NCBI GenBank assembly: GCA_010093605.1
Contig: MU004192.1
Coordinates: 690,882 to 754,881 of the forward strand
Reading direction: 5' to 3'
Length of the DNA stretch: 64,000 nucleotides
DNA from: Lophium mytilinum
Taxonomy: Eukaryota
The notes below the pieces were generated by a model that was not told the origin of the DNA, did not search any database, and saw only the letters and a program-made list of their open reading frames with translations. Made by a program: the position numbers and the translations under genes. Each line of letters opens with the position of its first letter. The stretch's first letter is position 1. This document shows positions 10,117 through 51,100 of the stretch, piece by piece.

Positions 10117-10635
10117 CCGACATGTCTTGATGAAGGAGTATTCATGATGATAGGCCATAGCATCTCGAGGAAATATTCGCTACATGATGGTTATTGATGG
10201 AAGAAGCAAAACTTGACAAAGGAGTCCAATCGTCCCCTCATGACTTCCACGAGTTATGACCCGGAAGGTAGTACTGTTCTTTACTGCCTTATAGAACGAG
10301 ATCATATCTATATTAACAAGAGAATGATTGCTGTTGAAAGAGGTCAAGTTGCAAAGACATCACACGTGACTGACACGTGATGAAGGGAGTGACGTCGATC
10401 GACGTCTGCTTCGACTTCGATTAACTCTCACATGTTGACATTGACCTCAACTCTACTCACTCTCCCAATGACTTAACATTGATGCGCTCAGTTCTATAGC
10501 CGCCTATCACTGATTTCTCTTATCACTAAGCTTCCCTTCATTCTATAGGTTTAAAAGTACACTTACGAATATCTAAACATCTCAAACTCTCGAGGCCTCT
10601 TACATCTAAGCCCACTGCGCCCATAGCTTACACCT

Positions 10636-12087
10636 ATGGTTAGAAAAGACACTATGAATACTCTCCCAACCGAGCTTCTTCTCCATATCCTCTCCCACCT
10701 CGATGTTCCCCCGCCATCCGTTACACGATTCTCCCACGAGCCTTCTATCCTCCTCACGAAAGCAAAATCTACACCCCTCAAATCCCTGCGCTTAACATCC
10801 CACCGCTTCCATGCTCTCGCTACTCCAATCCTCTTTCGATACTGCGTTCTCAGCCTCGACCACGCGCCACTATTGCTCCCAGTCGACGCGCGCACCCTAG
10901 ACGCCATGCAAGCCGCGCTCGAGACACTCTCGCCACACGAGTTGGGAATCTATACAAGGATGAGGGCGAAGCTGGATGCTACACAACCGGGTGCGTATCG
11001 AGAGGACTTCGATACCGTGATGCTGGAGTTTGTCGACGTGAAACCGGGAGACAAGTGGATGGAGCAGTCAGGACGCACATCGTGGGTGCCGCGGCTACCA
11101 CCACACTTTCGGGAAATGGCAACGTTCTTAGGCGAGCACAACTTGCGGCATAAGGTGAATGGTCTGGTTGTGGTCGCCCAGCGCGACTACGAGCCGGATT
11201 TTGGATATAGCACCACTACGGTTGACGGGCCGATGTACACGTACCATGCCGTCCAGGACCTCTGGAATAGTGTGTTTACGCTGCTAGATCCGGAAAGAGT
11301 AGTCGTAGCGGCGCCGCCGGGAACGCTCGCGACGTTGACGGAGACGAGTACACTTAGCTCGGATGGCTGGGCGTTTGAGATGTTATGTCATTACTTAGAA
11401 CTACGACAGGACAGACCTAGGAGATCAGAGCGCGAATGGAAGGCAGAGGAGCTAGGGTTTCAGGGCTCGAAGGGCTACGTGCTCGGTGCAGGCCCAGTAA
11501 TAGGGGATAGGAGAGGTCTGTTGATCTACGCGCGTCCATGGACGCATATTGGCTACAACGAGGGCAATTCTTTGCCGGTTTATTCCACTTACGAATATCA
11601 TCTCAAGCAGACGCCGAAGGTCCTGTACCTCGTCCTTGCGAGATTAGGCAAGGAGGCGCGCTGTTACGTTCGAAGTTTGACCTTTGTAGCTGTATTCCCA
11701 TTTAGCTCACACATGAGGACGATGCTACGGTCTATGGGAAAGGTCCCAACGTTAAAGAACTTGAGAGTACAGTTAGCGCCAGGCAAGGAGAATAACGTTC
11801 TGACGGATAAAGTCAGGATGAGGAAAGCTCAACGAGGGGACCTCTGGATGGAGCTCGATGGGTGTTATTCGAAGCTGGCGGAATTTTTGTGGTCCTTGGG
11901 TCAAGGGGCAGAGTTTCGCAGCGACGATGGATCAATGGGGTGTGGGGGAGACAGTTTCCAAAGATCGATGAAGAAGATGGGGGACATGTACAATCTTGAG
12001 AACCCAGAGGAGTTAGTGGAGTGGAAGGAGGAGGCCGGGTGGTGGAGAAGGATTGAACTTCTCAAAGATGCTGAACAGGTTAAGTGA
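10636..12087 (+). CDS. F-box domain protein
   Basis: MNTLPTELLLHILSHL and LKSLRLTSHRFHALATPILF. 483 aa single ORF. Confidence 0.75.
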   Translation: MVRKDTMNTLPTELLLHILSHLDVPPPSVTRFSHEPSILLTKAKSTPLKSLRLTSHRFHALATPILFRYCVLSLDHAPLLLPVDARTLDAMQAALETLSPHELGIYTRMRAKLDATQPGAYREDFDTVMLEFVDVKPGDKWMEQSGRTSWVPRLPPHFREMATFLGEHNLRHKVNGLVVVAQRDYEPDFGYSTTTVDGPMYTYHAVQDLWNSVFTLLDPERVVVAAPPGTLATLTETSTLSSDGWAFEMLCHYLELRQDRPRRSEREWKAEELGFQGSKGYVLGAGPVIGDRRGLLIYARPWTHIGYNEGNSLPVYSTYEYHLKQTPKVLYLVLARLGKEARCYVRSLTFVAVFPFSSHMRTMLRSMGKVPTLKNLRVQLAPGKENNVLTDKVRMRKAQRGDLWMELDGCYSKLAEFLWSLGQGAEFRSDDGSMGCGGDSFQRSMKKMGDMYNLENPEELVEWKEEAGWWRRIELLKDAEQVK

Positions 12088-12866
12088 TGCTACTCCTCTA
12101 CTCAATTGGTTAAAGTCATGTTAGAGGCTCACGGAAAGCGGCAACGTATTTCCTTCTCGATCCACCAGACTCGACCCAAAGATCTGGATGTGGCAATAGG
12201 GCGTCAAATGAACGGCACGTGATAAACCGTAGAAGCCACTCAAGGATCAAAGGGCGCAGTGCATTCTGCTGCCAGGCAAAGTTGCGGCTCTTGTCATTAC
12301 AACATGAAGCCCACATTCACCGGTGTCTAGCCTAGTCTACCCTCGCCTAAGGATCCGGTCAGAACACGTGACAAACTTACCCCCCACAATATATCAGCCT
12401 CACCCCTCATCAAGCGCCTCCTCATACTACGGGAAGTTTCTAGCGGATGGTCTCCGAAATGCGGAACGCCAATCTAGGCATCCCTTGTGCTTTTGCTCAA
12501 CCGATGCCTCCTCTCAACAAGCTCACTGGCAGCGAGAGATGCGAGTGCTGCGCCTCTCCGCTTTGGCCTTGCAATAGGCCGCCTTCTCTGTGATGGTTGG
12601 ATGGCGATTCTCGTGTCTGCAAGCCTGCATATTGTTGCATGCATAATCAAGGCAGAATGGCACGGCTCAAGGCAACCATCGTGGTGTCCCCCGCTCTTGA
12701 GCGACCTCAGCTTATCCGCCCCCACTGGCATCTGCCTGCAAGACTAAAGAGGCTGAGCATTTGATAAGGAGAGAGAGTATATGTAGGCTGGATTCTGGTT
12801 CTATTTTAACGCTCTGAGCTCTCCTATATTTCTTTTGCGAAGAGATCATTGCTCCCACCGCATACC

Positions 12867-15737
12867 ATGGCTATGACCACACCGATGCCTTCAGCAGAGC
12901 TGAGGCTCGCCACAAAGCTCAAGATTGATGAGTTCGAGCGTCTTCGCGAGGATGCTCGCACACGCCATGTGGATATCTTGATTGCTGTCGATGGAGAAGG
13001 GGGCGACAAGCGCGAACGTGTCGCGTCCCTTCTTGCGAAGATCAAGAAGCTCGATCCGAAATACGAAGAAGACTACGAACTAGGAAACATGGAGCAGTAT
13101 CTTAAGCAGGCAGAATATGACACTTCCATCTCTAGCACCAAACTCGAAAAGTTCGAGACTACCTTGGTCGACAAATTCCGGCACCATAAACGAAGGATGG
13201 AGCTTGGTAGCTTGTACGCCAAGCTGTTGACCGAATACATCGAAAAATCTGACCCTAAGGAATCGGTCGCGGCCAAGATTGACCGTATGTGTATGGAAGA
13301 TGAGTTCGAGTTAGTTGAGGAGGGTGAAATTGAACAGCTCCGAGAGAACTTCGATTCTATTACCTTCGCACCTCTCGAAACGGACGAGGAAGAGATCCAC
13401 AGATATCTTTCCAAGTTCTTCGTCGGAAGCACAGGGACTCAGGATCTGGATGACTTGCGTCGGAATGTCAAGAACTTTGGAGAAGATATGCTTGAGGAGA
13501 AGAGAAGGTTTACCGAAGACAATGTCACCTGGACAATCAATGACCTCCTAAGGAAACCTCTCGTCAGGGCCGAGACGAAGCAGACACTAAACTCCTATCT
13601 TCAGTCGCCTGCTGTACTCAAAGAGCTTATCAGCACCCTCAACCTACGATTCTCCAACGTAGCAAATTGGAAATGGCGCGATGCAGAGAAGGGTCTCCGC
13701 GTCGAGGCTCGTCAAAACCTCGATAAGGAATATTGTATGACAGCGGAAGAAGATCTCCTAGATCTCATCTTCTTGAATGTGGTGGCGACTGAATGGTCGG
13801 CGTCCATAAAAGAGGGCTACAGAGACATTGTCAGCAGTTTCCCCTTGGGCGTTACTACCTGGAAACGGGCTGAGAATCCGACATCTGAAGAGCTGGACAA
13901 GCGCGATTATTACCTCTCAGCCCCTAGAAGGAGACCCCATGTCAGATCGAACATCTGTGATATCTGTCACGGTCCCCCACCTCCTATGCCTCGTGGACCT
14001 CCTCCACCCCCAGCTTTCAGAGGCCCTCCACCGCCTCCTCCTCCGCCAGGATGGGCCCCCCCTCCGCCAATGCCACGTGCCATGCCGCCTCCACCCCCTC
14101 CGATGCCCAGGAATAACGACATTGTCATAATTAGAACTCAGAGGCTGGAAGAGGAGCGACATTACGAGTACATGCGTGACCTTTTCCTGTCTCAGCTGCC
14201 TGGCCGGTACCGAAGTCGATACGGCGTTCGTCGTTACAACGACAAATCCCTTCCGGAGGTTGTCTATCGTAGCCAAACCCAGGAGACTGTCATGAAAAAG
14301 CTGGCCACGGAGATGCTCCTCCGTGAAGCACTGGATGGCGAAGTTGGGGTCATCCAGCACGACTTCAAATCCTTTGCTTCCGGGCTTTCACACAGCACCA
14401 TCCTCGCCGTCCTCAAGTTCATTGGAGTCAGCGAGACGTGGCTGACCTTCTTCCAACGCTTCCTAGAGGCTCCTTTGAACATGGGCCCCATTATCAGAGG
14501 TACCGCGGATCAGGTCCGAACTCGCAAGCGAGGTGTTCCAGTCGGCCATGCCTTCGAGAGGTTCTTCGGCGAAGCTGTCCTATTTTTCTTGGACCTGGCC
14601 ATCAACCAAGTTGTTGGCATCCAGCATTTCCGCATACGCGATGAAGGCTGGATGTGTGGCACCCATGAAAAGTGCTACACTGCTGAGAAGACCGTTAGGG
14701 AGTTCTCGGAGGTCATGGGCCTCAACTTGCAGTCCAGCTCTTACTTCTCCAGCTTCGGCTTCCCCAACCCCGGCAAGATATCCGTAGGCCACCTTACCCT
14801 GTCCCATGACGGCAAATGGGAAATCGACGAAGTTCAGCTCGATGCCTACATCCGCCACGTCCGCTCCGACCTCGCGGCTTGCACCAGCATACTCTCCTGG
14901 ATTGACACCTACAACCGGCTCGTCTCATACTACATCGACTCCCTCTTCGGCCCGCCCGCACACTGCTTCGGTAAAGAACACCGCGACAGCCTCTTAAGCG
15001 CTATTCAGAAGATCAACGCCGCACTCTTCACCGGCAAAGACGGCACCGCTAGCAACCCAGCCGACCACGTCAAGCAGATGCTCGCCAAGATCCCAGACTG
15101 CCCCGAGATCACCGACGCGTTCATCTACCTCCCGCAGAGCTTCGGCGGCCTCGATCTGCAAAACCCGTACACCATCCTTTCCCTCGCGTCTGAGGTCAAG
15201 AAAGATCCCGCCGAGGTAATGCAAGAGTACCTCAAGGACGACCGCAAGGCATACGAGAAGGCGAAGCAGCGATTCGAAGCGCTCAACGAAGTGGCGCGCA
15301 AGAACAGGGCCGACGGCATCTGGCACGACAAGGAGAAGTTCGCAGCCGCGTTCCCCGATGGCGATACCACGAGCTTCATGTCCTACGAGGTGTGGACGAA
15401 GTACCGTGAGACCGCGCCGATGCCGAGCCCCTGTGGGAACCTGTTCGAGGCGTACTCGGAGTTGCAGCGTGTGCCGGAGGCTGACATCGAGGCTACGAGC
15501 CAGGTCAGCGAGGAGGTGCGGCGCCTGAAGCGGGCCCAGGGGACTAGCGGGAGCTTCTGGGACTTGGATGCTGGGGAGAAGTGGGCTGTTCAGCTTTATG
15601 CGGATGAGTGCTTTGAGCGCTATGGGGGGTTGTGTCTTGTGGAGAAGGATTGGCTGCCGTTGCAGGCGCTGAGGATGATGCGGGGGAATGATGATGACGA
15701 TGATACGAATTCGGTTGTCTCGTCGCTACTCGATTGA
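12867..15737 (+). CDS. rvt: rvt-type (cellular, non-mobile) reverse transcriptase-related protein with divergent active site
   Basis: Colinear rvt hallmarks: helical N-terminus (EQYLKQAEYDTSIS, DEFELV), EEDLLDLIFL, DLFLSQLP, QHDFKSFASGLSHSTILAVLKFIGVSETWLTFFQRFLEAPL, RKRGVPVGHAFERFFGEAVLFFLDLAINQ, DAFIYLPQSFGGLDLQNP, RYGGLCLVEKDWLPL. No gag, endonuclease, integrase, LTR or poly-A seen. Confidence 0.88.
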   Translation: MAMTTPMPSAELRLATKLKIDEFERLREDARTRHVDILIAVDGEGGDKRERVASLLAKIKKLDPKYEEDYELGNMEQYLKQAEYDTSISSTKLEKFETTLVDKFRHHKRRMELGSLYAKLLTEYIEKSDPKESVAAKIDRMCMEDEFELVEEGEIEQLRENFDSITFAPLETDEEEIHRYLSKFFVGSTGTQDLDDLRRNVKNFGEDMLEEKRRFTEDNVTWTINDLLRKPLVRAETKQTLNSYLQSPAVLKELISTLNLRFSNVANWKWRDAEKGLRVEARQNLDKEYCMTAEEDLLDLIFLNVVATEWSASIKEGYRDIVSSFPLGVTTWKRAENPTSEELDKRDYYLSAPRRRPHVRSNICDICHGPPPPMPRGPPPPPAFRGPPPPPPPPGWAPPPPMPRAMPPPPPPMPRNNDIVIIRTQRLEEERHYEYMRDLFLSQLPGRYRSRYGVRRYNDKSLPEVVYRSQTQETVMKKLATEMLLREALDGEVGVIQHDFKSFASGLSHSTILAVLKFIGVSETWLTFFQRFLEAPLNMGPIIRGTADQVRTRKRGVPVGHAFERFFGEAVLFFLDLAINQVVGIQHFRIRDEGWMCGTHEKCYTAEKTVREFSEVMGLNLQSSSYFSSFGFPNPGKISVGHLTLSHDGKWEIDEVQLDAYIRHVRSDLAACTSILSWIDTYNRLVSYYIDSLFGPPAHCFGKEHRDSLLSAIQKINAALFTGKDGTASNPADHVKQMLAKIPDCPEITDAFIYLPQSFGGLDLQNPYTILSLASEVKKDPAEVMQEYLKDDRKAYEKAKQRFEALNEVARKNRADGIWHDKEKFAAAFPDGDTTSFMSYEVWTKYRETAPMPSPCGNLFEAYSELQRVPEADIEATSQVSEEVRRLKRAQGTSGSFWDLDAGEKWAVQLYADECFERYGGLCLVEKDWLPLQALRMMRGNDDDDDTNSVVSSLLD

Positions 15738-16530
15738 TTGGAGTATGAGGGTAGTTTGGTCGGGAATGGGCTTGAAGCTTATGATTTCGACGCTTTTACG
15801 ATTTCGACTAGGTTCTTAGGTAGGTATACGTTGAGTTCAGGATTGTTTTCTTTATTATACGTTATGGACAGAACACAGTAGCAGGTTGAAACCGGTTTAT
15901 TTATATCAACGGCAACATTTTGGAGGAAACCGCGCATATAATGCATGAGTCTTGAAAGCACGTGCAGTGGATGTTTTAAGCAGTGACACGCTACAAGTCT
16001 GTGCACCTTCGTTTGGCACTGTTTGGGGTGCCCCCATGAGCTTCGGAAGTTTAAGCGCAATGTCGAGTTTCGAGCACTGTGAATCAGACTGCTCCTTGAA
16101 GTATTAGCTACTAACTAGCTGGACTACCCCTCTCAGTGGTATTTAGTGAGCAAGATTGGAGTCGAGCAGTGATGATATTCGTGTGCCCAGGCGCCACAGG
16201 ACTGCCGATAGGCCTAAGCTTCCACAACGTGAGGGATGGGGGGATCGGCCTTATGTTCATATCGATGGTCTAGACACACATGTGTGATTGAATCGAGACA
16301 GGAGTTCAATATTTTCATGATGGAGGTTGTGGAAAGGAGAGGCGACGAAAGTGGTAAGAATTCTGGCTAGACCGCATTTAGATAGCCAGAAATATCTCCG
16401 CATCTAAAAGCCGAGGATGACGGCCACCATCATGAACAATCCCATCACTGACGAGTCAATCATCAAGCCAGACTTATTCGACGTGCTGCATTGTTTACGT
16501 AATGCCCTTCAGACTGAGCGCAAGGTCACC

Positions 16531-18264
16531 ATGATATCCAGAATCTCTCTTCGTCCTTTCTTTCGTCGATTTTCTTCATTTCCAGTTCATCAAAATGGCC
16601 CCTCAACACTTCGCACGCGTCCTAGATTCTTTTCTGTCTCTTCGCGTCTTCGTCTTATGGAAACATCTGGGTTTTCTGAAGATCAGTTGATGGTTCGGGA
16701 AGCGATTGAGAAAATCTGTGCAAACTTTCCTGATGTGTGTTTCAGGCAATTAAACAATCAAGTCAGGCCAATGATTGACCAGAACAGGAGTATTGGGCGG
16801 AACATGACGAGTCCGGCGAATATCCCCATGAGCTACATGCTGCTCTGTCCAAGGATCGCTGGATCGGAATTGCCTTGCCAGAAGAGCTCGGAGGTGCCGG
16901 TCTAGGAATCTCAGAGGCAACAATGATGCTGCACACCATTTCCGAGTAAGCCAAGGAGATCGAGCGTCGTTAAACTCGCATATTTACGTGTCCTAGAAGC
17001 GGTGCCGGGATAGCGGGTGCGCAGTCTATTCATGCTAACGTGTATGCAACGCAAGTGGGTATTCGTCCACCTGCTGTCCCTGTTCTAAGGCTCTCTAACC
17101 TCTTAAGCCTGTCGCCAAATTTGCAACTCCGGAGCAAAGGCAAAAGATGCTGCCAAAGCTAATTGGAGGAGAGTGGAGGGCTTGCTTTGGAGTGTATGCA
17201 GTCTCTGACCTGGGCAGTTGGCTGAAGTCTGACATAGTACAGCACCGAACCCAATACGGGCTTGGAGACTCTCAAGCTTCGCACCTTAGCTACTAAAGAC
17301 GGAGATCATTACAACATAAGTGGCCAGAAGATGTCGGTAACATTCTTCCTATGAGCCTTTCCATGCTAATATTGTCAGCTGGATATCTTCAGCGCAGGTC
17401 GCCTCGAAAATGGTTCTCTTGGCCCGAACTACCCCTCTCGAAGATGTGAAGAAGCCATCAGAAGGTCTATCACTTTTCTTCATTGATTTCGATAAGAGCG
17501 CGCCTGGGCTGGAACTCAAGAAGATCAAAAAGATGGGCGGACGAGCTATCGATGCTAATGAGGTATTCTTCGATAACTACCGCGTTCCCGCAGATACTTT
17601 GATTGGGCAAGAAGGGCAAGGTTTTAAGATCGTGAGTGCTCCATCAGAGACTGTCTTACGCATCAAGACTTATATCGAAGCAGGTCCTGCACGGAATGAA
17701 CGCGGAACGATGTCTCCTAGCAGGAGAAGCTCTGGGCCTTGGTTACGCTGCTCTCAAGAAGGCATCAGACTATGCGAGAGATCGAGTGGTGTTTGGAAGG
17801 CCTATTGGCCAGAATCAAGGTATTCAACATCCACTCGCTGCGGCTTTCATGAACCTCGAGGCAGCAAAATTGGCCACATACCACGCTGCACGACTTTACG
17901 ATGCTAGTGGAAAAGATTTTTCTATCACGCCGCATGCTGTCGGGGTGGCTTGCAACTCAGCCAAATATCTAGCTGCTGAAGCGGCATTTACAGCGTGCGA
18001 ACGGGCCGTAAGCCTAATATCAAGACTCAAATATCCTAAGCAGCTGCTAACCTATGACAGGTATTGACACTGGGAGGCATGGGTTATGCCCAAGAGTACC
18101 ATGTCGAACGCTATTTACGTGAATGCTTCGTGCCACGTATAGCACCAGTGAGCAGAGTAAGTCTTCCAAAAACCACAGCCGGTGAATTCAACACTCACGT
18201 GATCTAGGAAATGATAATGAACTACGTTGGCGAAAAGGTTCTGAGACTACCCCGTAGCTATTGA
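16531..18264 (+). CDS. Acyl-CoA dehydrogenase (probably mitochondrial)
   Basis: Arg/Ser-rich presequence, WIGIALPEELGGAGLG, CFGVTEPNTG, GQKIWIS, EVFFDNYRVP..LIGQEGQGF, FGRPIGQNQGIQHPLA and LGGMGYAQEYHVERYLRE. Many introns. Confidence 0.93.
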
Positions 18265-18726
18265 AATAGGAAGATAAAGTCGGTTGAATACTGAGGTGTT
18301 AGCCACAGGTTGAGTCAGTCCTGGTCATAGCACAGCGCACTCAGTCAGACGCTCGGATCTACCAGTGTATAAATGTCGAAAGTCCGATGAATCAGTGCTA
18401 TCTTCACTTCCATCATATTGCAACAACCCCGCTGAATGATACGCCTATAGAAGCAAAGGGATTAGTTTGAAACCCTTCACTATCTGGCCAGCAGGCCATC
18501 TGCGTGGCTGCCTTCGGTCACCAGCCGTCTGTGATCGCGACCTCTTTGATCATATAAGCTTCAATCTCTATCTTTCATTCCCTTTATTCCCTTTTCCCAG
18601 TCCCAGATCACTACTCCCTAGGTCCTGATCTCTCACCACTTCCATACTTCCAGAACTAGGCTATCACAGTCCAAAGGCAACACCCTTCAACGCAACCACA
18701 CGGGTTTCCTTTGCCAGTAGTCCAAA

Positions 18727-19866
18727 ATGTGCAAAGAATACCGCGAACACTGCCGCTGCGGAAATTGGAAAACCGTCCACATCGAACTCTGCCCCAGAGG
18801 CCACGAGCTCCGGCGCCTGGGCCGACCCTTCTTCCACCATCTCCCCGAGATCATCCTCAATCCGACGATGCGGCGTTGCCCACAATGTCAAAATATCCCC
18901 ACGGGACCCGCTACCACGACGAGAGCGCAAGCCGGACCGCCACCGACTTCCCGCAGACTCTGGGACGGCCAGCCCAGCGCTCAGCCCTCTACGCAAGGGA
19001 ACCCGATAAGCGGCCAAAGGAACACGCCGCCTTCGCCTTTGCAAGCACCGAGGATTCTAGCGAATCCATATCGGTACTTTGAGGGTCTGGGCCCTGAGAA
19101 CGAGCGAGCGGCCTCGCCGGTTACGGCTCATAGGACTCCTATGTTTGATGGCCAGGATAGAGCGCAGTTCGCGAGATCGCTGGCGCAGCTTTCTTCTACG
19201 GTGAGTGTATTGTCCTGGATTGCGAAGTCGGTCCCTCAGGCTCAACTTAAGGCTCAACCCGAATCGCAGACTCACACTCAGGCTCAACCTCAACCGCAGC
19301 CGAAACCGCAACCGCAGATGCAGCTTCCGTCCGAGCTTTCCGCGTCCTCAATCGCAGACCTCCCGGCCGCCTTCGCGAAGCTCAAGGTTCGCGGATCGAC
19401 AGAATGGGCAGAGCATATGAACTCAACTCCTGCAGCAAGCACAATCCCGCCGCCAGAGCTTCATCCAGCAGTGCCAGCCCCCAAAGAACCATCACCAGCC
19501 GCCGCAACGCCGATTATCGAGACGGTGCCGCCGCAAGAGCCGCTGCTGGCAGCATTGAGCCCTCAGGAGCCATCGCCAGCGACTCCTGTGCCGATTATCG
19601 AGACGGTGGCGCACTTGGTACCTGAGGTGGCGATTGAGGATGTAGATGACGACGGAGAATATCTGACCGCGTCTTCGACTGCTGCGAGTGATTCGGGAGA
19701 GAGCTGTGAGAGCAGCTGTATTTTGGAGAAAGGGGTAGAGGGAAAGGAGGTTAATGAAGCGGAATGGGAGCTTGTGAGGTCTCAGGATATGCCACCAGCA
19801 GGGAAACTGAGTGGGGGAAGGAAGGGAGATGGGTTGAGGGATTGGGAGGTTATTCATGTGTTGTAG
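18727..19866 (+). CDS. Hypothetical protein: Cys/His-rich N-terminus, Pro/Gln-rich disordered body
   Basis: 379 aa ORF starting MCKEYREHCRCG..HIELCPRGH...CPQC, with a QPQP tract and an internal duplication. Confidence 0.6.
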   Translation: MCKEYREHCRCGNWKTVHIELCPRGHELRRLGRPFFHHLPEIILNPTMRRCPQCQNIPTGPATTTRAQAGPPPTSRRLWDGQPSAQPSTQGNPISGQRNTPPSPLQAPRILANPYRYFEGLGPENERAASPVTAHRTPMFDGQDRAQFARSLAQLSSTVSVLSWIAKSVPQAQLKAQPESQTHTQAQPQPQPKPQPQMQLPSELSASSIADLPAAFAKLKVRGSTEWAEHMNSTPAASTIPPPELHPAVPAPKEPSPAAATPIIETVPPQEPLLAALSPQEPSPATPVPIIETVAHLVPEVAIEDVDDDGEYLTASSTAASDSGESCESSCILEKGVEGKEVNEAEWELVRSQDMPPAGKLSGGRKGDGLRDWEVIHVL

Positions 19867-45839: not shown

Positions 45840-47339
45840 ATGATTGCTAATATCTCCCAGTCTGCCAGAGGCTTCCAGTCCGTTGTCGCAGGACATACCT
45901 TGTTGCTAGGCCAAATAGCTTGGTACCGGCGATCAGAACTGTTCAGCAACCGCAGGCAGTTCGCATCCCAACCCGCCGAGAAGCCGGCGCAAGACGAACA
46001 GCTCGGCAAATCCGCGTCCTTTACCTCCTCATCGCCGCCATCATCTCCATCCTCTGGAACGACTTCTCCCGTCGCCTCCAGCTCCGGCGCCTCCTCAGTA
46101 CAGTCTCTACCGGCGGATTGGGAGGATCAGCTTCCAAATCTCGATGACTTCTCCCAGCTCCCCCACAAAGATTTCGGGAAGAACCAGCTTATAGAAACAA
46201 ACGAGGAGTTCAAACGAAGCCTGAGGCAGATAACGAGGCAATTCCCGGCTATCACGTATTCTTTTGCCTACGGTTCCGGCGTGTTTCCCCAAACAGATGG
46301 CTCCTCCTCTTCCACGTCGCTGAGCCCGCACCCAAATCCCCCGGAAGCGATTTCCAAGTGGCAGAGAGGCGGAGGCAAGATGATTGACTTCATATTTGCG
46401 ACCAAGTTCACCGAGCATTTCCACTCTCTGAACCTCATGCGCCACAGGGATCACTACTCGTTCCTCGGCTCTTTCGGCTCCAGCGTCGTCTCACACGTTC
46501 AGGACTCCTACGGGGCCGGCGCATATTTCAACCCTTACATTACCGTGAACGGCACCCTTATCAAATACGGAGTCGTGAACTTCAGCACTCTGCTCCGCGA
46601 CCTCACGGACTGGGACACGCTATACCTCGCCGGCCGCCTCCACAAGCCCGTGAAAATCCTAACCGAAGAACCAAACATCCGTGTCGCGAACCAGCGCAAC
46701 CTCATGGCCGCCGTGCGTTGCGCCCTACTCCTTCTCCCACCCCAATTCACCGAAAGGGAACTCTACACCACCATCGCCTCGCTCAGCTACCAAGGCGACC
46801 CGCGCATGGCCCTCGGCTCGGAACACCCGAACAAGATCGCGAACATCGTAACGCACCAAATCCGCAATTTCCGCCTCTTGTACAGCGACCTCATCAACAG
46901 CTTACCGAACGTCGACTACGCCGAATCCTCATCTTTCAAGGATGCCAGCTGGATCGACGACCTCAAGCTCGACCGGCCCATGACGCAGAACATGGAGACT
47001 GCCTTCCGCGGCAACATGGTCCGCCGCCTGCCCAAATCCTTCCGCCAAAAACTCTACTTCTTGTACCAGCGCAAATTCGGCATCCCGGGCCGCGAGTTCC
47101 AAGAGATGCTCGAAGCGAGCGCCGACGAAGACGCCAAGGGCAGCTTGAAGAAGCCCCTCGGGAGCGACTTTGATCGGCGCGTGGCGTCAGAGGCCGATCT
47201 CCCTAAGATGGTGGCTAAGGCCGTGAACCAGACGGTCAAGTGGCCGAGCGCGGTGCAGAGCCTGAAATCTGGGTTTACGGCAGGACCGGGGCGGGCATTG
47301 AGATATGTGCGGGAGAAGCGCGCGAAGGGAAAGCAGTAA
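45840..47339 (+). CDS. TAM41: Mitochondrial phosphatidate cytidylyltransferase (Tam41/Mmp37)
   Basis: FAYGSGVFPQ, KMIDFIF, YFNPYI..LIKYGVV, DLTDWDTLYLAGRLHKPV, LSYQGDPRM. Confidence 0.95.
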   Translation: MIANISQSARGFQSVVAGHTLLLGQIAWYRRSELFSNRRQFASQPAEKPAQDEQLGKSASFTSSSPPSSPSSGTTSPVASSSGASSVQSLPADWEDQLPNLDDFSQLPHKDFGKNQLIETNEEFKRSLRQITRQFPAITYSFAYGSGVFPQTDGSSSSTSLSPHPNPPEAISKWQRGGGKMIDFIFATKFTEHFHSLNLMRHRDHYSFLGSFGSSVVSHVQDSYGAGAYFNPYITVNGTLIKYGVVNFSTLLRDLTDWDTLYLAGRLHKPVKILTEEPNIRVANQRNLMAAVRCALLLLPPQFTERELYTTIASLSYQGDPRMALGSEHPNKIANIVTHQIRNFRLLYSDLINSLPNVDYAESSSFKDASWIDDLKLDRPMTQNMETAFRGNMVRRLPKSFRQKLYFLYQRKFGIPGREFQEMLEASADEDAKGSLKKPLGSDFDRRVASEADLPKMVAKAVNQTVKWPSAVQSLKSGFTAGPGRALRYVREKRAKGKQ

Positions 47340-48151: not shown

Positions 48152-51100
48152 CTACGCCCGCTGGTTGAAGAACCAACTACTCCGCTTCCCGCCCTGCTCC
48201 TGCGCCTGCACACTCGCGAGCGTCTGCAGCGCCGGCCCGCCCTGCGGATCCACGCCGCCGCCGCCGCCTCCACCACCACCGCGCAGCGGTTTCGCGATGC
48301 GCGATGCGGCGCCGCCGAACGCGAAGCTGGCGCCTGACGTCGGGGAGCCGAGGCCGCGAGTGGAGCCCTGCTTGGCGGCCTCGAGGCGCTCCTTGACGGC
48401 GGCAAGCTGAGCTTCGAAGCTGCGCAGAAGTCAGTACGCTTGCAACCAATGCGGGAAAGGGAGGGGAGTAAAGAGAGACAGACTCGACATACCGGTGGTT
48501 CGCCTGCGTGAGCTTCTCCTGGCTGTCTTGGAGGAGGGCTTCGAGGCTCTGGATGCGTTCGTTGCGGGCGATGAGCTTGCGCTCTGCGATGGCGACTTCT
48601 TTCTTCAGGCCGCCGTTTTGCTCGACGAGCTGGCGCTGGACGACGGTGAGTTGTTCGAGGTTGCGCTCGAGGAACATCATCTTCTTTTGCTGGGCGCGGT
48701 TGTTGGAGGTGCGGAGGACGTTGTTGTATTGTTCGCGCGTTTCGTCGAGGGAGATTTCGAGTTCGACGACCTGGACGTGCGGATTAATACGGGAGTACTT
48801 ACGATAGATGGATTGGCCGGAAAAGTGGATGTATGACTTACCCTCTCACACCTGTTCTGCAAGTCGCGCATCAGGCTCTTCTTCATGTTGTCAAACTCGG
48901 CAATCTGCTGCTGCACCGTCTTGCCATTGACACCTCCACTTGCAACGCCGTTCACGATAGCGCCGCTCTTCAATCGCTGCTGCATGGCGTCGACTTCAGC
49001 CTTTAGCTTTGCGTTCTCATCCAATGTCCTGTGCAAGTCGTCCCGCAGTTCAGCTTCTAGCTCCGCCTGGCCCTCCTGCTTCGCGACGTAGGCATCTGCA
49101 AGGCGGGCCTTGACCTCTTCAGTGTCGGCCTCAGAGAGATTACTCTCGAGGAGATGCTCATAGTCCTGTTGCAGCATAGCAAAACGATCCTCGAGCGCCT
49201 CCCTTCGTCGCATGTGGCCCTCGTCCGCTTCGCCTCGTGCGGTAATGGAGAGCTCCGCCTGTCGGACTATTCCTTGTGTCTCTTGCAGTCTATGTCGGAG
49301 GTCCTTGAGCGCGTCCGGAGCGATGGTTCCACCACTGCTGCTGATGTCGTGAAGCGAGTCGACCTGGTCAATCAGAACTCGAAGGTTCTTCTCGTTGTCG
49401 CTGAAGACCTCGCCGCCCATGTCGAATCCAGCCATCATCTGCGCCATGCGCTCTGCTTTCTTCTTCTCCTTCTCGTCCAGTAACGCACTAGTCTCCTTTG
49501 CACTCATCTTTGCATCTAGGAGATGCTGCTTGGTATCGTCGAGTTCGGCTGTAAGTTCCGAGTTCGCCTCTTTCAAGCCGTCCATAGTGATTTGCGTCTC
49601 CTTGAACTCGAAGTTAAGCTTCTGAACTTGCATCTTGATCTCGTTGACCTCGGTAGTCAGCTTCTCGTTGTCTTTGTTCAGCCTACCCTCACGCTCTTTC
49701 GTATCTTGCAGCTGCTCTGTGATTGACTTTAATTTGTCCTCAGCTCTCGTTATTTGAGTCTCTTTCTCAGCGATCTGGTCCTGTAATTCGTTTTCTCGTC
49801 GTAGGAATTCTTCTTTCTCATCTTTTTCTAAAGGAATACTTGGCGTGCTTGCTCGTTCTAGTTCTAGCCTTGAGTCGGGTCTTGAAGGTGTCTCCGATCT
49901 TGTGCTTGCAAGTCTCGAAGGTGTGTCTGCTCCAGATCTCGGCGGTGGTGCTCTCCTGGCGGTTGGGTCTTGTGATAACGATGGCGTCCATTTTTCTTTC
50001 GGTACTGCCTCGCCAATACGCCATAGGCTTACTTCTCCCTCCAAATTCGATATGTAGCTCTCAAATGTTGTGACCTGGCTCTGTATCTTCTTGAGCTGCA
50101 TCTTCAGTTCCTGAGGGCTAAGTTCCGCATTGACCTTGGCCTTGTTCTTAATCGACTTCGCTCTGACACCAAAGCGTAGTGTCCCAAGAGTTTCCTGGTC
50201 ATTGTAGCTACTCGGCGAGCAATTGATGATGAGCGTCGTCCTTGAATTACCACCCAGTGATTCTTGAAGAATACGCGTGAGCTTCGAGTCTCGATACGGC
50301 ACGTGCGTCGACTTTCCGTCCGTCAACGAGTTGATGACCATGCCCAACGCACTCAAGCTCTTGTTAATCTTCTTTGCCTCCTCTAGTGTTTGCCCGCTGG
50401 CACCTGTCTTCCCAATCTTCTCGCTACCAGCTAAATCTACCAGGAACAGCTGTCCGCGCTTCGCCGACCCTGTCTCGACATTCTTCTGCTGGATGGTGAT
50501 GACGAAGATGGAATGTGACCGCGACGACTCCTGATTCATATTGGTTGCCGCAACCGCGCGGGCCATACCGCCTCGCCGCAGAACCTCATACACCTCGTCT
50601 ACGCTCGTCACGTAGACCTCTAGCAACCCCTTCACATACACACCCCTCGTCTTGTCCTCGTGTACGGGTAAGTTGTCGTTTTGCGGGGCTAGCAGATCAC
50701 GGATTCGCTCCATGTAAATCTCCATGTAGCTGACCTGCACCATGAACTCCATATTGCTCCCACTTGACATGATACTGGCGAAGATCTGGTTGACGATGCG
50801 CGGTATGACTCCCTTGCCCTCCTCGTCGTCTATATCGTTGCCCATCATCGTGTATGACTTTCCCGCGCCTGTCTGCCCATACGCAAACACGGTTCCGTTG
50901 TAGCCATTAAGGATGTCGTCGACAGTCGAGCGGATAGAGAAGTCGAACACGTCGGCCTGCCGCGAAGCCATGTCGAAGACGCGGTCGAATGTGAAGGCCC
51001 CGGAGGCCTCCCCAGACTGGATATCCCATCGTCAGTTTCTGTAGCGCTCCCGACTAAAGCTTGGGGCATTTTCCTCGATGCCGGTGCCGTACCTGGATAT

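Follow-up and report, generated by a model that had tools for sequence, protein, structure and literature searches.

An rvt-like gene of Lophium mytilinum with a degenerate polymerase active site: a predicted pseudo-reverse transcriptase in a clade under purifying selection

The rvt genes are described as single-copy domesticated reverse transcriptases (RTs) with a large loop 2a that occur in both bacteria and eukaryotes (PMC5718144), and their products are reported to prime from protein and to multimerise through an N-terminal coiled-coil (PMC9226505). The rvt genes are reported to show terminal-transferase activity and to be induced by a block of translation (PMC3520738), to evolve under purifying selection, to polymerise without a template and to depend on intact catalytic residues (PMC10680173); template-free polymerisation, stress induction and the need of catalytic residues for the stress function are the common thread of these accounts (PMC3520738, PMC10680173, PMC11512509). 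Another RT-like core, that of Prp8, is described as non-catalytic (PMC5718144). Here, we analysed a 64-kb window of the fungus Lophium mytilinum (assembly GCA_010093605.1, contig MU004192.1, positions 690,882–754,881 of the forward strand, renumbered from 1), which contains at 12867–15737 on the forward strand an intronless open reading frame (ORF) for a 956-amino acid (aa) protein, P0001, with full-length homologs. The gene is a divergent member of what appears to be the fungal rvt family and falls in a clade where the residues of the polymerase active site have been lost to varying degrees and the protein is under purifying selection. The lineage is probably a catalytically dead or crippled one, for which a non-catalytic “pseudo-RT” scaffold is predicted from the sequences.

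The gene resembles the described rvt genes in its full-length homology, its predicted N-terminal helical domain, its RT core, in which a large loop 2a separates motif 2 from motif A, and its C-terminal GGLxL domain, and it is likewise single-copy, intronless, non-mobile, transcribed and under purifying selection. It differs from them in that the canonical D...HDD, NGKYR and NxxKT, found in 91–100% of 78 canonical rows of our family alignment, are D...RDE, DKEYC and QSSS here, and in having a polyproline insert and no TGASTCA upstream. With D593E, K288E, R290C, N622Q and K625S, it does not have the intact catalytic residues of an rvt gene, whereas the published function is reported to need them (PMC10680173). 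Prp8 is similar in keeping an RT fold under selection despite degenerate polymerase residues (VIA Z 11.3–11.6), but the two have no sequence kinship beyond the fold and stand in different domain contexts, and Prp8 is universal and essential whereas the clade of our gene is patchy and lineage-restricted. The bacterial rvt/UG37, AbiK and DRT9 proteins share the RT core, DRT9 with a weak profile match (E 0.039) and fold Z of 12.1–13.4, and bacterial rvt is reported to use protein priming and to multimerise (PMC9226505); however, these proteins are catalytically active, whereas the active site of P0001 is degenerate and no non-coding RNA or defence context was seen for it. No account of an rvt clade with degenerate catalytic residues was found in the titles, abstract openings and passages on “rvt” of the literature searched, a scope outside which lie the founding paper of Gladyshev and Arkhipova (2011) with its supplement and that of Yushenova and Arkhipova (2018).

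Active-site residues in the gene and its clade

The first-pass annotation of this DNA had proposed an intact rvt gene of about 956 codons, and the same ORF was recovered with internal stops absent. The frame is uninterrupted between 12849 and 15737 on the forward strand, with a TTG at 12849, the first ATG at 12867 and a stop ending at 15737, giving 956 codons plus the stop; in DNA of about 50% GC, an open frame of this length is very improbable by chance. The motif positions that had been read from the letters were matched to the base by script. The fingers β-hairpin (aa 277–293, 13695–13745) holds RQNLDKEYC (aa 282–290, 13710–13736) in place of RRQLNGKYR, with the changes N286D, G287K, K288E and R290C. 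The motif A strand VGVIQHDFKSF (14343–14375) has the catalytic Asp D499 at 14361–14363 (QHDF). Motif C is FRIRDEGW (aa 588–595, 14628–14651), which corresponds to YRLHDDxW with H591R and D593E, the first Asp D592 (14640) being retained and E593 lying at 14643. A sequencing error in the DE codons had been named as a possible flaw and is not the cause of this reading, as the codons showed 0 differences in contigs from runs of two studies, an RNA-type contig (run X1, record 1, 5624 nucleotides (nt), 10434–16057) and a DNA contig (run X2, record 5). Run X1, like run X5 below, was classed as RNA-type from spliced joints alone, none of the runs that carry the sequence being recorded as RNA, and such contigs tell no level, strand or ends of transcripts. 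About 30 residues past motif C, the canonical proteins have GLxFNxxKTG, which we take to be RT motif D with its conserved Lys, and the remnant of this block in P0001 is GLNLQSSS (14718–14741) with N622 changed to Q and K625 to S.

A word-seeded search found 14 other proteins of 757–1133 aa, the best being an uncharacterised protein of Mytilinidion resinicola (P0002; 85% identity, 74% coverage) and the next-best coming from Lepidopterella, Trematosphaeria and Lophiotrema. The profile of these 15 sequences matched 1571 representative clusters with E ≤ 1e-3, of which 702 reached E ≤ 1e-30, and the majority motifs in an alignment of 161 proteins were RRQLNGKYR, SDFKWF, RKRGxPxxH, YRLHDDxW and GGLxL. 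A FastTree phylogeny of the RT core and C-terminal domain was made from 135 of the 161 rows, the 26 rows with fewer than 430 filled columns being left out; it is unrooted, an outgroup being absent among the 150 representatives listed. It was split with a support of 100 into clade X, with 35 rows including P0001, and 100 other rows, which comprise 78 canonical rows (Y) and a nested group of 22 (Z). When the columns of motifs A and C were removed and 77 chosen rows (35 X, 32 Y and 10 Z) were analysed by IQ-TREE, clade X was again separated with 100 in the Shimodaira–Hasegawa-like approximate likelihood ratio test (SH-aLRT). All named members of clade X are Dothideomycetes, and the named canonical relatives among the matches listed are mostly Leotiomycetes, Sordariomycetes, Eurotiomycetes and Lecanoromycetes. 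In a first search with a canonical query, 110 of 115 new proteins fit simple patterns for all three motifs, and a second search was similar taxonomically; the only named Dothideomycetes among the canonical matches listed were Coniosporium apollinis and Lasiodiplodia mahajangana. The rvt consensus of HDD and NGKYR given in the first-pass annotation holds in the 78 canonical rows, and the best matches of P0001 form a fungal RT-related family with this consensus and not a group outside it. These motifs together with the published architecture and the model described below argue for membership of the gene in the fungal rvt family of domesticated RT-related genes.

The active-site deviation is clade-wide across the 35 representative clusters and not private to the Lophium gene. 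The second Asp of motif C is present in 78/78 canonical rows and in 0/35 of clade X, where it is replaced by K (11), E (9), R (9) or other residues (6). The His preceding the motif C pair is found in 71/78 against 3/35 rows (R in 17), and the first Asp of the pair in 77/78 against 30/35. The motif A Asp, kept in 78/78 canonical rows, is left in 9/35 of clade X, with at least seven state changes on the tree that fall mostly within this clade, which is the pattern expected of a residue no longer needed. Among the rows that cover the fingers motif, its Asn is present in 67/73 canonical and 0/28 clade X rows, its Lys/Arg in 73/73 and 7/28, and its final Arg in 72/73 and 2/28, with Cys in 19. Fifteen positions conserved in at least 90% of Y are changed or variable in X (N286, R290, G307, W332, D499, H591, D593, W607, N622, K625, G636, H661, S674, F689 and G933 in P0001 numbering), and they lie in the fingers, motifs A, C and D and their vicinity. 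A further 44 positions are conserved in X and Y alike, the C-terminal GGL block included; in P0001 this block is GGLDL (15144–15158), of which G760, G761 and L762 are common to all clades. The block between motifs A and C, RKRGVPVGH in P0001 (14523–14549), is likewise preserved throughout the clades, with G556 in 35/35 X and 78/78 Y rows.

At the base of clade X, HDD was changed to RDE, the fingers Arg to Cys, and a polyproline tract was gained in loop 2a; later, the catalytic residues still left were lost more than once, each time independently, within the clade. RDE at motif C is common to P0001, P0002 and four further proteins (P0003–P0006), which make up a basal RDE subgroup. P0003–P0006 retain NxxK[TS] and W607, whereas P0001 and P0002 read GLNLQSS[SD] with E at 607; thus, the lineage of our gene is further degenerate than its nearest relatives. 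In all, P0001 retains D499, D592, R589 and the RKRG..H block, and its replaced positions are N286, K288, R290, H591R, D593E, W607E, N622Q and K625S. The members of the clade are also invisible to the Pfam RVT_1 family: canonical members give sub-threshold matches to RVT_1 or to group II RTs, and P0001 and other clade X members give none, so domain-based surveys of domesticated RTs will miss the clade.

Apart from clade X, the nested subclade Z (22 rows, including P0052, P0060, P0070, P0073 and P0074) arose separately within the canonical clade and is also partly degenerate. It has lost the motif A Asp in 22/22 and the fingers Arg in 21/21 rows, in which it is like clade X, but it has retained the motif C DD in 18/22 rows. 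An acidic residue stands two positions past the lost motif A Asp in 16/22.

Predicted fold and the polyproline insert

An AlphaFold model was made from the 15-row alignment, with a mean predicted local distance difference test (pLDDT) value of 77.3 and a predicted template modelling (pTM) score of 0.76. Its best Foldseek matches were LINE-1 ORF2p, R2, a group II intron RT, DRT9 and Prp8 (E 1.4e-9 to 1e-5), and VIA aligned 340 residues within model residues 207–775 to the GsI-IIC group II intron RT (6ar1_A) with a Z of 16.9 and a root-mean-square deviation of 4.0 Å. The Atlas model of P0001 compared with Ascomycota “RT domain-containing” clusters gave template modelling (TM) scores of 0.77–0.84 across 820–842 residues. 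In the model, a full fingers–palm–thumb RT fold is preceded by an N-terminal helical domain and followed by a C-terminal domain. The N-terminal domain (aa 1–270, 12867–13676) is delimited by predicted secondary structure, with long helices at residues 10–43 and 90–127, and by analogy would correspond to the coiled-coil/multimerisation domain described for rvt. No Pfam family, and so none of the endonuclease, RNase H, integrase and gag domains, was found for P0001 even at E ≤ 1, nor was any NCBIfam family. The best matches of a profile search against PDB, which were protocadherin-15, huntingtin fusions and leiomodin, were rejected as polyproline artefacts.

Loop 2a, measured from the fingers motif to motif A, has 204 residues in P0001, the median being 186 for clade X and 139.5 for the canonical rows. 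It contains a polyproline tract of three P(4–6)MPR units (aa 369–415, 13971–14111) that is predicted to be disordered, the pLDDT being below 50 for residues 353–423. A run of at least four prolines is found in this loop in 27/35 rows of X, 0/78 of Y and 1/22 of Z, and of the eight clade X rows that lack it, seven are fragments truncated at the N-terminus. Where the insert starts, P0001 has CDICH (C364, C367 and H368; 13956–13970), a CxxCH motif present in 13/35 X and 0/78 Y rows. Judging from sequence, this motif and the Cys that replaces the fingers Arg in 19/28 rows could form a metal site.

Selection, transcription and copy number

The selection on the gene was examined with runs X4 and X5, which come from relatives at about 3–3.6% DNA divergence. 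Contigs of X4 span 12817–15897 with 108 substitutions and a sole indel of 4 nt at 15817, past the stop. The ORF differences listed against X4 and X5 number 22 (163 of the 203 differences overall lie outside this list) and comprise 19 synonymous and 3 non-synonymous ones; 19 of the 22 are at third codon positions (binomial p 4e-7). The ratio of non-synonymous to synonymous proportions of differences (pN/pS) was 0.043 over 14973–15734 (codons 703–956). A metagenome scan found 20 loci of the clade, nine of them with uninterrupted frames of 952–985 codons (stop to stop), and no synteny between the window and these loci was found. The ratio of non-synonymous to synonymous rates (dN/dS) of clade pairs was calculated by the Nei–Gojobori method and was 0.29 for L001–L003, which are of the RDE type (Fisher p 4e-8), and 0.21–0.23, significantly below 1, for L013, L016 and L011, which are without any of the three catalytic Asp. 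By region, the palm gave 0.28–0.36, again significantly below 1, and in the L013/L016/L011 group the N-terminal domain was the most constrained part (0.07–0.09), with fingers values of 0.5–0.9 that were not significant. The gene and its clade are under purifying selection. The earlier suggestion that orthologs might share the changed motifs with dN/dS below 1 was borne out, since RDE and the changed fingers motif are shared and the ratios are about 0.04 within the gene (pN/pS) and 0.21–0.29 in clade pairs; close orthologs with HDD and a dN/dS near 1, the sign of a recent decay, were not what was found.

The gene is transcribed. The X1 contig on the downstream neighbour is without eight GT..AG introns that are retained in the DNA contig, and in this run the entire gene lies in a single contig with a depth figure of 108, against 4.7 for the intergenic piece 16091–16293. 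Run X5, which comes from a relative and a different study, has three of the same spliced joints in the neighbour and covers 13711–13975 and 14973–15739 of the region. The upstream intergenic region, which would contain the promoter (12088–12866), is on the same RNA-type contig as the gene, and the 3′ flank up to the end of this contig (15738–16057) is a possible 3′ untranslated region, with the caution that contigs cannot show true ends. TGASTCA was not found in 12088–12866; it occurs in one of eight clade X upstream regions, which is about chance level, and a copy lies at –272 in the single canonical locus. Two CACGTG boxes are present upstream of the gene at 12217–12222 and 12367–12372.

The DNA depth in run X2 was 170.7 for the gene, 166.9–192.5 for the upstream flank and 170.7 downstream except for a spike at a repeat. 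No direct or inverted repeats flank the gene, and tblastn found no second or canonical copy of the family inside the 64-kb window. From the depth, the flanks and the window search, the gene is a single-copy, non-mobile host gene. A contig of 835 nt in run X4 (record 14) matches the window only at 15112–15153 and 15582–15622, with 422 unlike letters between, and may represent a second, diverged member of the family in that relative.

Candidate functions, competing explanations and flanking features

The clade-wide residue loss, the full-length frame and the purifying selection together support the first-pass proposal of a pseudo-RT, or an RT of altered chemistry, that is retained by selection. 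We consider the first of these, a dead or crippled rvt paralog lineage kept as a non-catalytic scaffold, to be the probable explanation. The fingers Lys and Arg of polymerases such as the RT of human immunodeficiency virus 1 (HIV-1) hold the incoming nucleotide, and the Lys of motif D protonates the leaving group. As these nucleotide-holding and leaving-group-protonating residues are gone from P0001, it is read as dead or crippled though the carboxylates D499, D592 and E593 remain. Furthermore, selection is equally strong in sister lineages without any catalytic carboxylate, so the job of the clade cannot be two-metal polymerisation. Efficient nucleotide polymerisation would thus have been lost and the preserved fold used for a non-catalytic job, by analogy with the RT-like domain of Prp8. 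Multimerisation through the N-terminal domain is probably part of this job, the retained cleft probably binds nucleic acid or a partner, and the disordered polyproline loop, by analogy, probably recruits proline-recognition proteins of the SH3, WW, GYF, EVH1 or profilin type.

Several points weigh against this explanation. The D499/D592/E593 triad, the RKRG..H block and R589 are kept, by which some metal-dependent chemistry is conceivable, and K287 might partly compensate for the lost K288 beside it. The direct evidence of selection on the gene itself comes mainly from codons 703–956, the catalytic codons of X4 and X5 being outside the listed differences. The equation of the canonical clade with published rvt draws on the consensus motifs and the published architecture, and the roles given to the N-terminal domain and the polyproline loop are drawn by analogy. 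Finally, the M. resinicola model P0002 (757 aa) is out of frame from about codon 713: it is 81–87% identical and gapless to residue 712 and then follows another frame of the orthologous DNA (window 14995–15216), which is either a real frameshift, in which case the gene would be truncated or decaying in M. resinicola, or an error of assembly or gene model.

A more specific proposal can be made tentatively, and we give it somewhat less than an even chance: clade X would be an old pseudo-RT lineage whose cleft binds RNA or a nucleotide-linked ligand and whose polyproline loop couples it to proline-recognition proteins, acting as a sensor or adaptor in the translation-stress pathway of the catalytic RVT. 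If so, clade X would be, to our knowledge and by analogy, another domesticated RT fold kept non-catalytically, apart from Prp8, and the series from RDE with NxxK through RDE without NxxK, as in this gene, to no carboxylates would be a natural dissection of the catalysis-dependent functions of rvt. A widespread lineage that keeps the whole protein under selection after the loss of its active site would mean that selection can act on a function of the rvt scaffold beyond polymerisation; the graded loss offers ready natural separation-of-function alleles, and partners of the polyproline loop would be a handle for finding the pathway.

An active nucleotidyl transferase of altered chemistry, with D499, D592 and E593 as metal ligands and remodelled fingers that shift the substrate or priming preference, for example to another nucleotide or to a protein-primed or short-product reaction, is unlikely. 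The three carboxylates are kept in P0001 and in four of the five other RDE-subgroup proteins (P0002, P0003, P0004 and P0006; P0005 has N at motif A), E stands at the second motif C position in 9/35 clade rows, the RKRGxPxxH block and R589 are conserved, and the palm is among the regions under purifying selection (dN/dS 0.28–0.36). However, the fingers N, K and R and the motif D N and K, which are 92–100% conserved in the 78 canonical rows, are replaced in P0001, and the stress function of rvt is reported to need intact catalytic residues (meeting report, PMC10680173). In addition, sister lineages without D499, and even without D592, are under the same purifying selection, which indicates that the function selected in the clade needs no carboxylates.

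We regard as rather improbable that the protein acts specifically as a decoy subunit, forming hetero-oligomers with a catalytically active canonical RVT from another locus of the genome or regulating it. It would fit with the multimerisation of rvt by the N-terminal coiled-coil (PMC9226505), with the N-terminal domain being the most constrained part in one clade X lineage and with the 44 positions conserved in both clades, but a canonical paralog was not found in the 64-kb window. As a weak point in the same direction, the four named clade X species, of Mytilinidion, Lepidopterella, Trematosphaeria and Lophiotrema, are absent among the matches listed for two canonical queries (120 rows each, overlapping and about half named).

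That the gene is a recently inactivated relic with a left-over open frame is contradicted by the results and has very little probability. The out-of-frame M. resinicola model past about codon 712 and the terminal branch of P0001, which at 0.54 is longer than the neighbouring ones (0.37 and about 0.3), would agree with decay. However, the 956-codon frame is intact, comparison with a relative gives 19 synonymous and 3 non-synonymous differences, the ORF is free of indels in a relative that has 108 substitutions, proteins only 46–50% identical share the active-site state, clade pairs have dN/dS of 0.21–0.29 and the gene is found in RNA-type assemblies. That the gene encodes the RT of a mobile element such as a retrotransposon, for which the RT fold with structural matches to LINE-1 and R2 RTs might speak, can practically be set aside, since the DNA depth is single-copy and near the flank values, no repeats were found at the flanks in direct or inverted form, Pfam finds no accessory domain of the kinds named above, no second copy lies within the window and ordinary host genes lie on either side, one F-box-like and one spliced.

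The upstream neighbour on the same strand (10636–12087, +) encodes an F-box-like protein (Pfam E 9.5e-6). This gene, the intergenic region and the rvt-like gene are on one unbroken RNA-type contig of X1, which could mean overlapping or read-through transcripts. Downstream, a short dispersed repeat at 16114–16190 is matched by at least six other X2 DNA contigs with 3–7 differences and has a bin depth of 394.6. It is followed by a gene at 16506–19000 (+) with at least eight short GT..AG introns of 46–53 nt, confirmed by spliced contigs of X1, three of them also in X5, and by two copies of a 53-nt direct repeat, 75% identical and spaced by 81 nt, at 19479–19612. Farther away, a Tam41/Mmp37 phosphatidate cytidylyltransferase gene is located at 45840–47339 (+; Pfam E 1.7e-117); weak tblastn matches of family members at 46377–46943 fall inside it and were rejected as chance. 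The long ORF adjoining it at 48677–50971 on the reverse strand looks kinesin heavy chain-like by eye from its translation.

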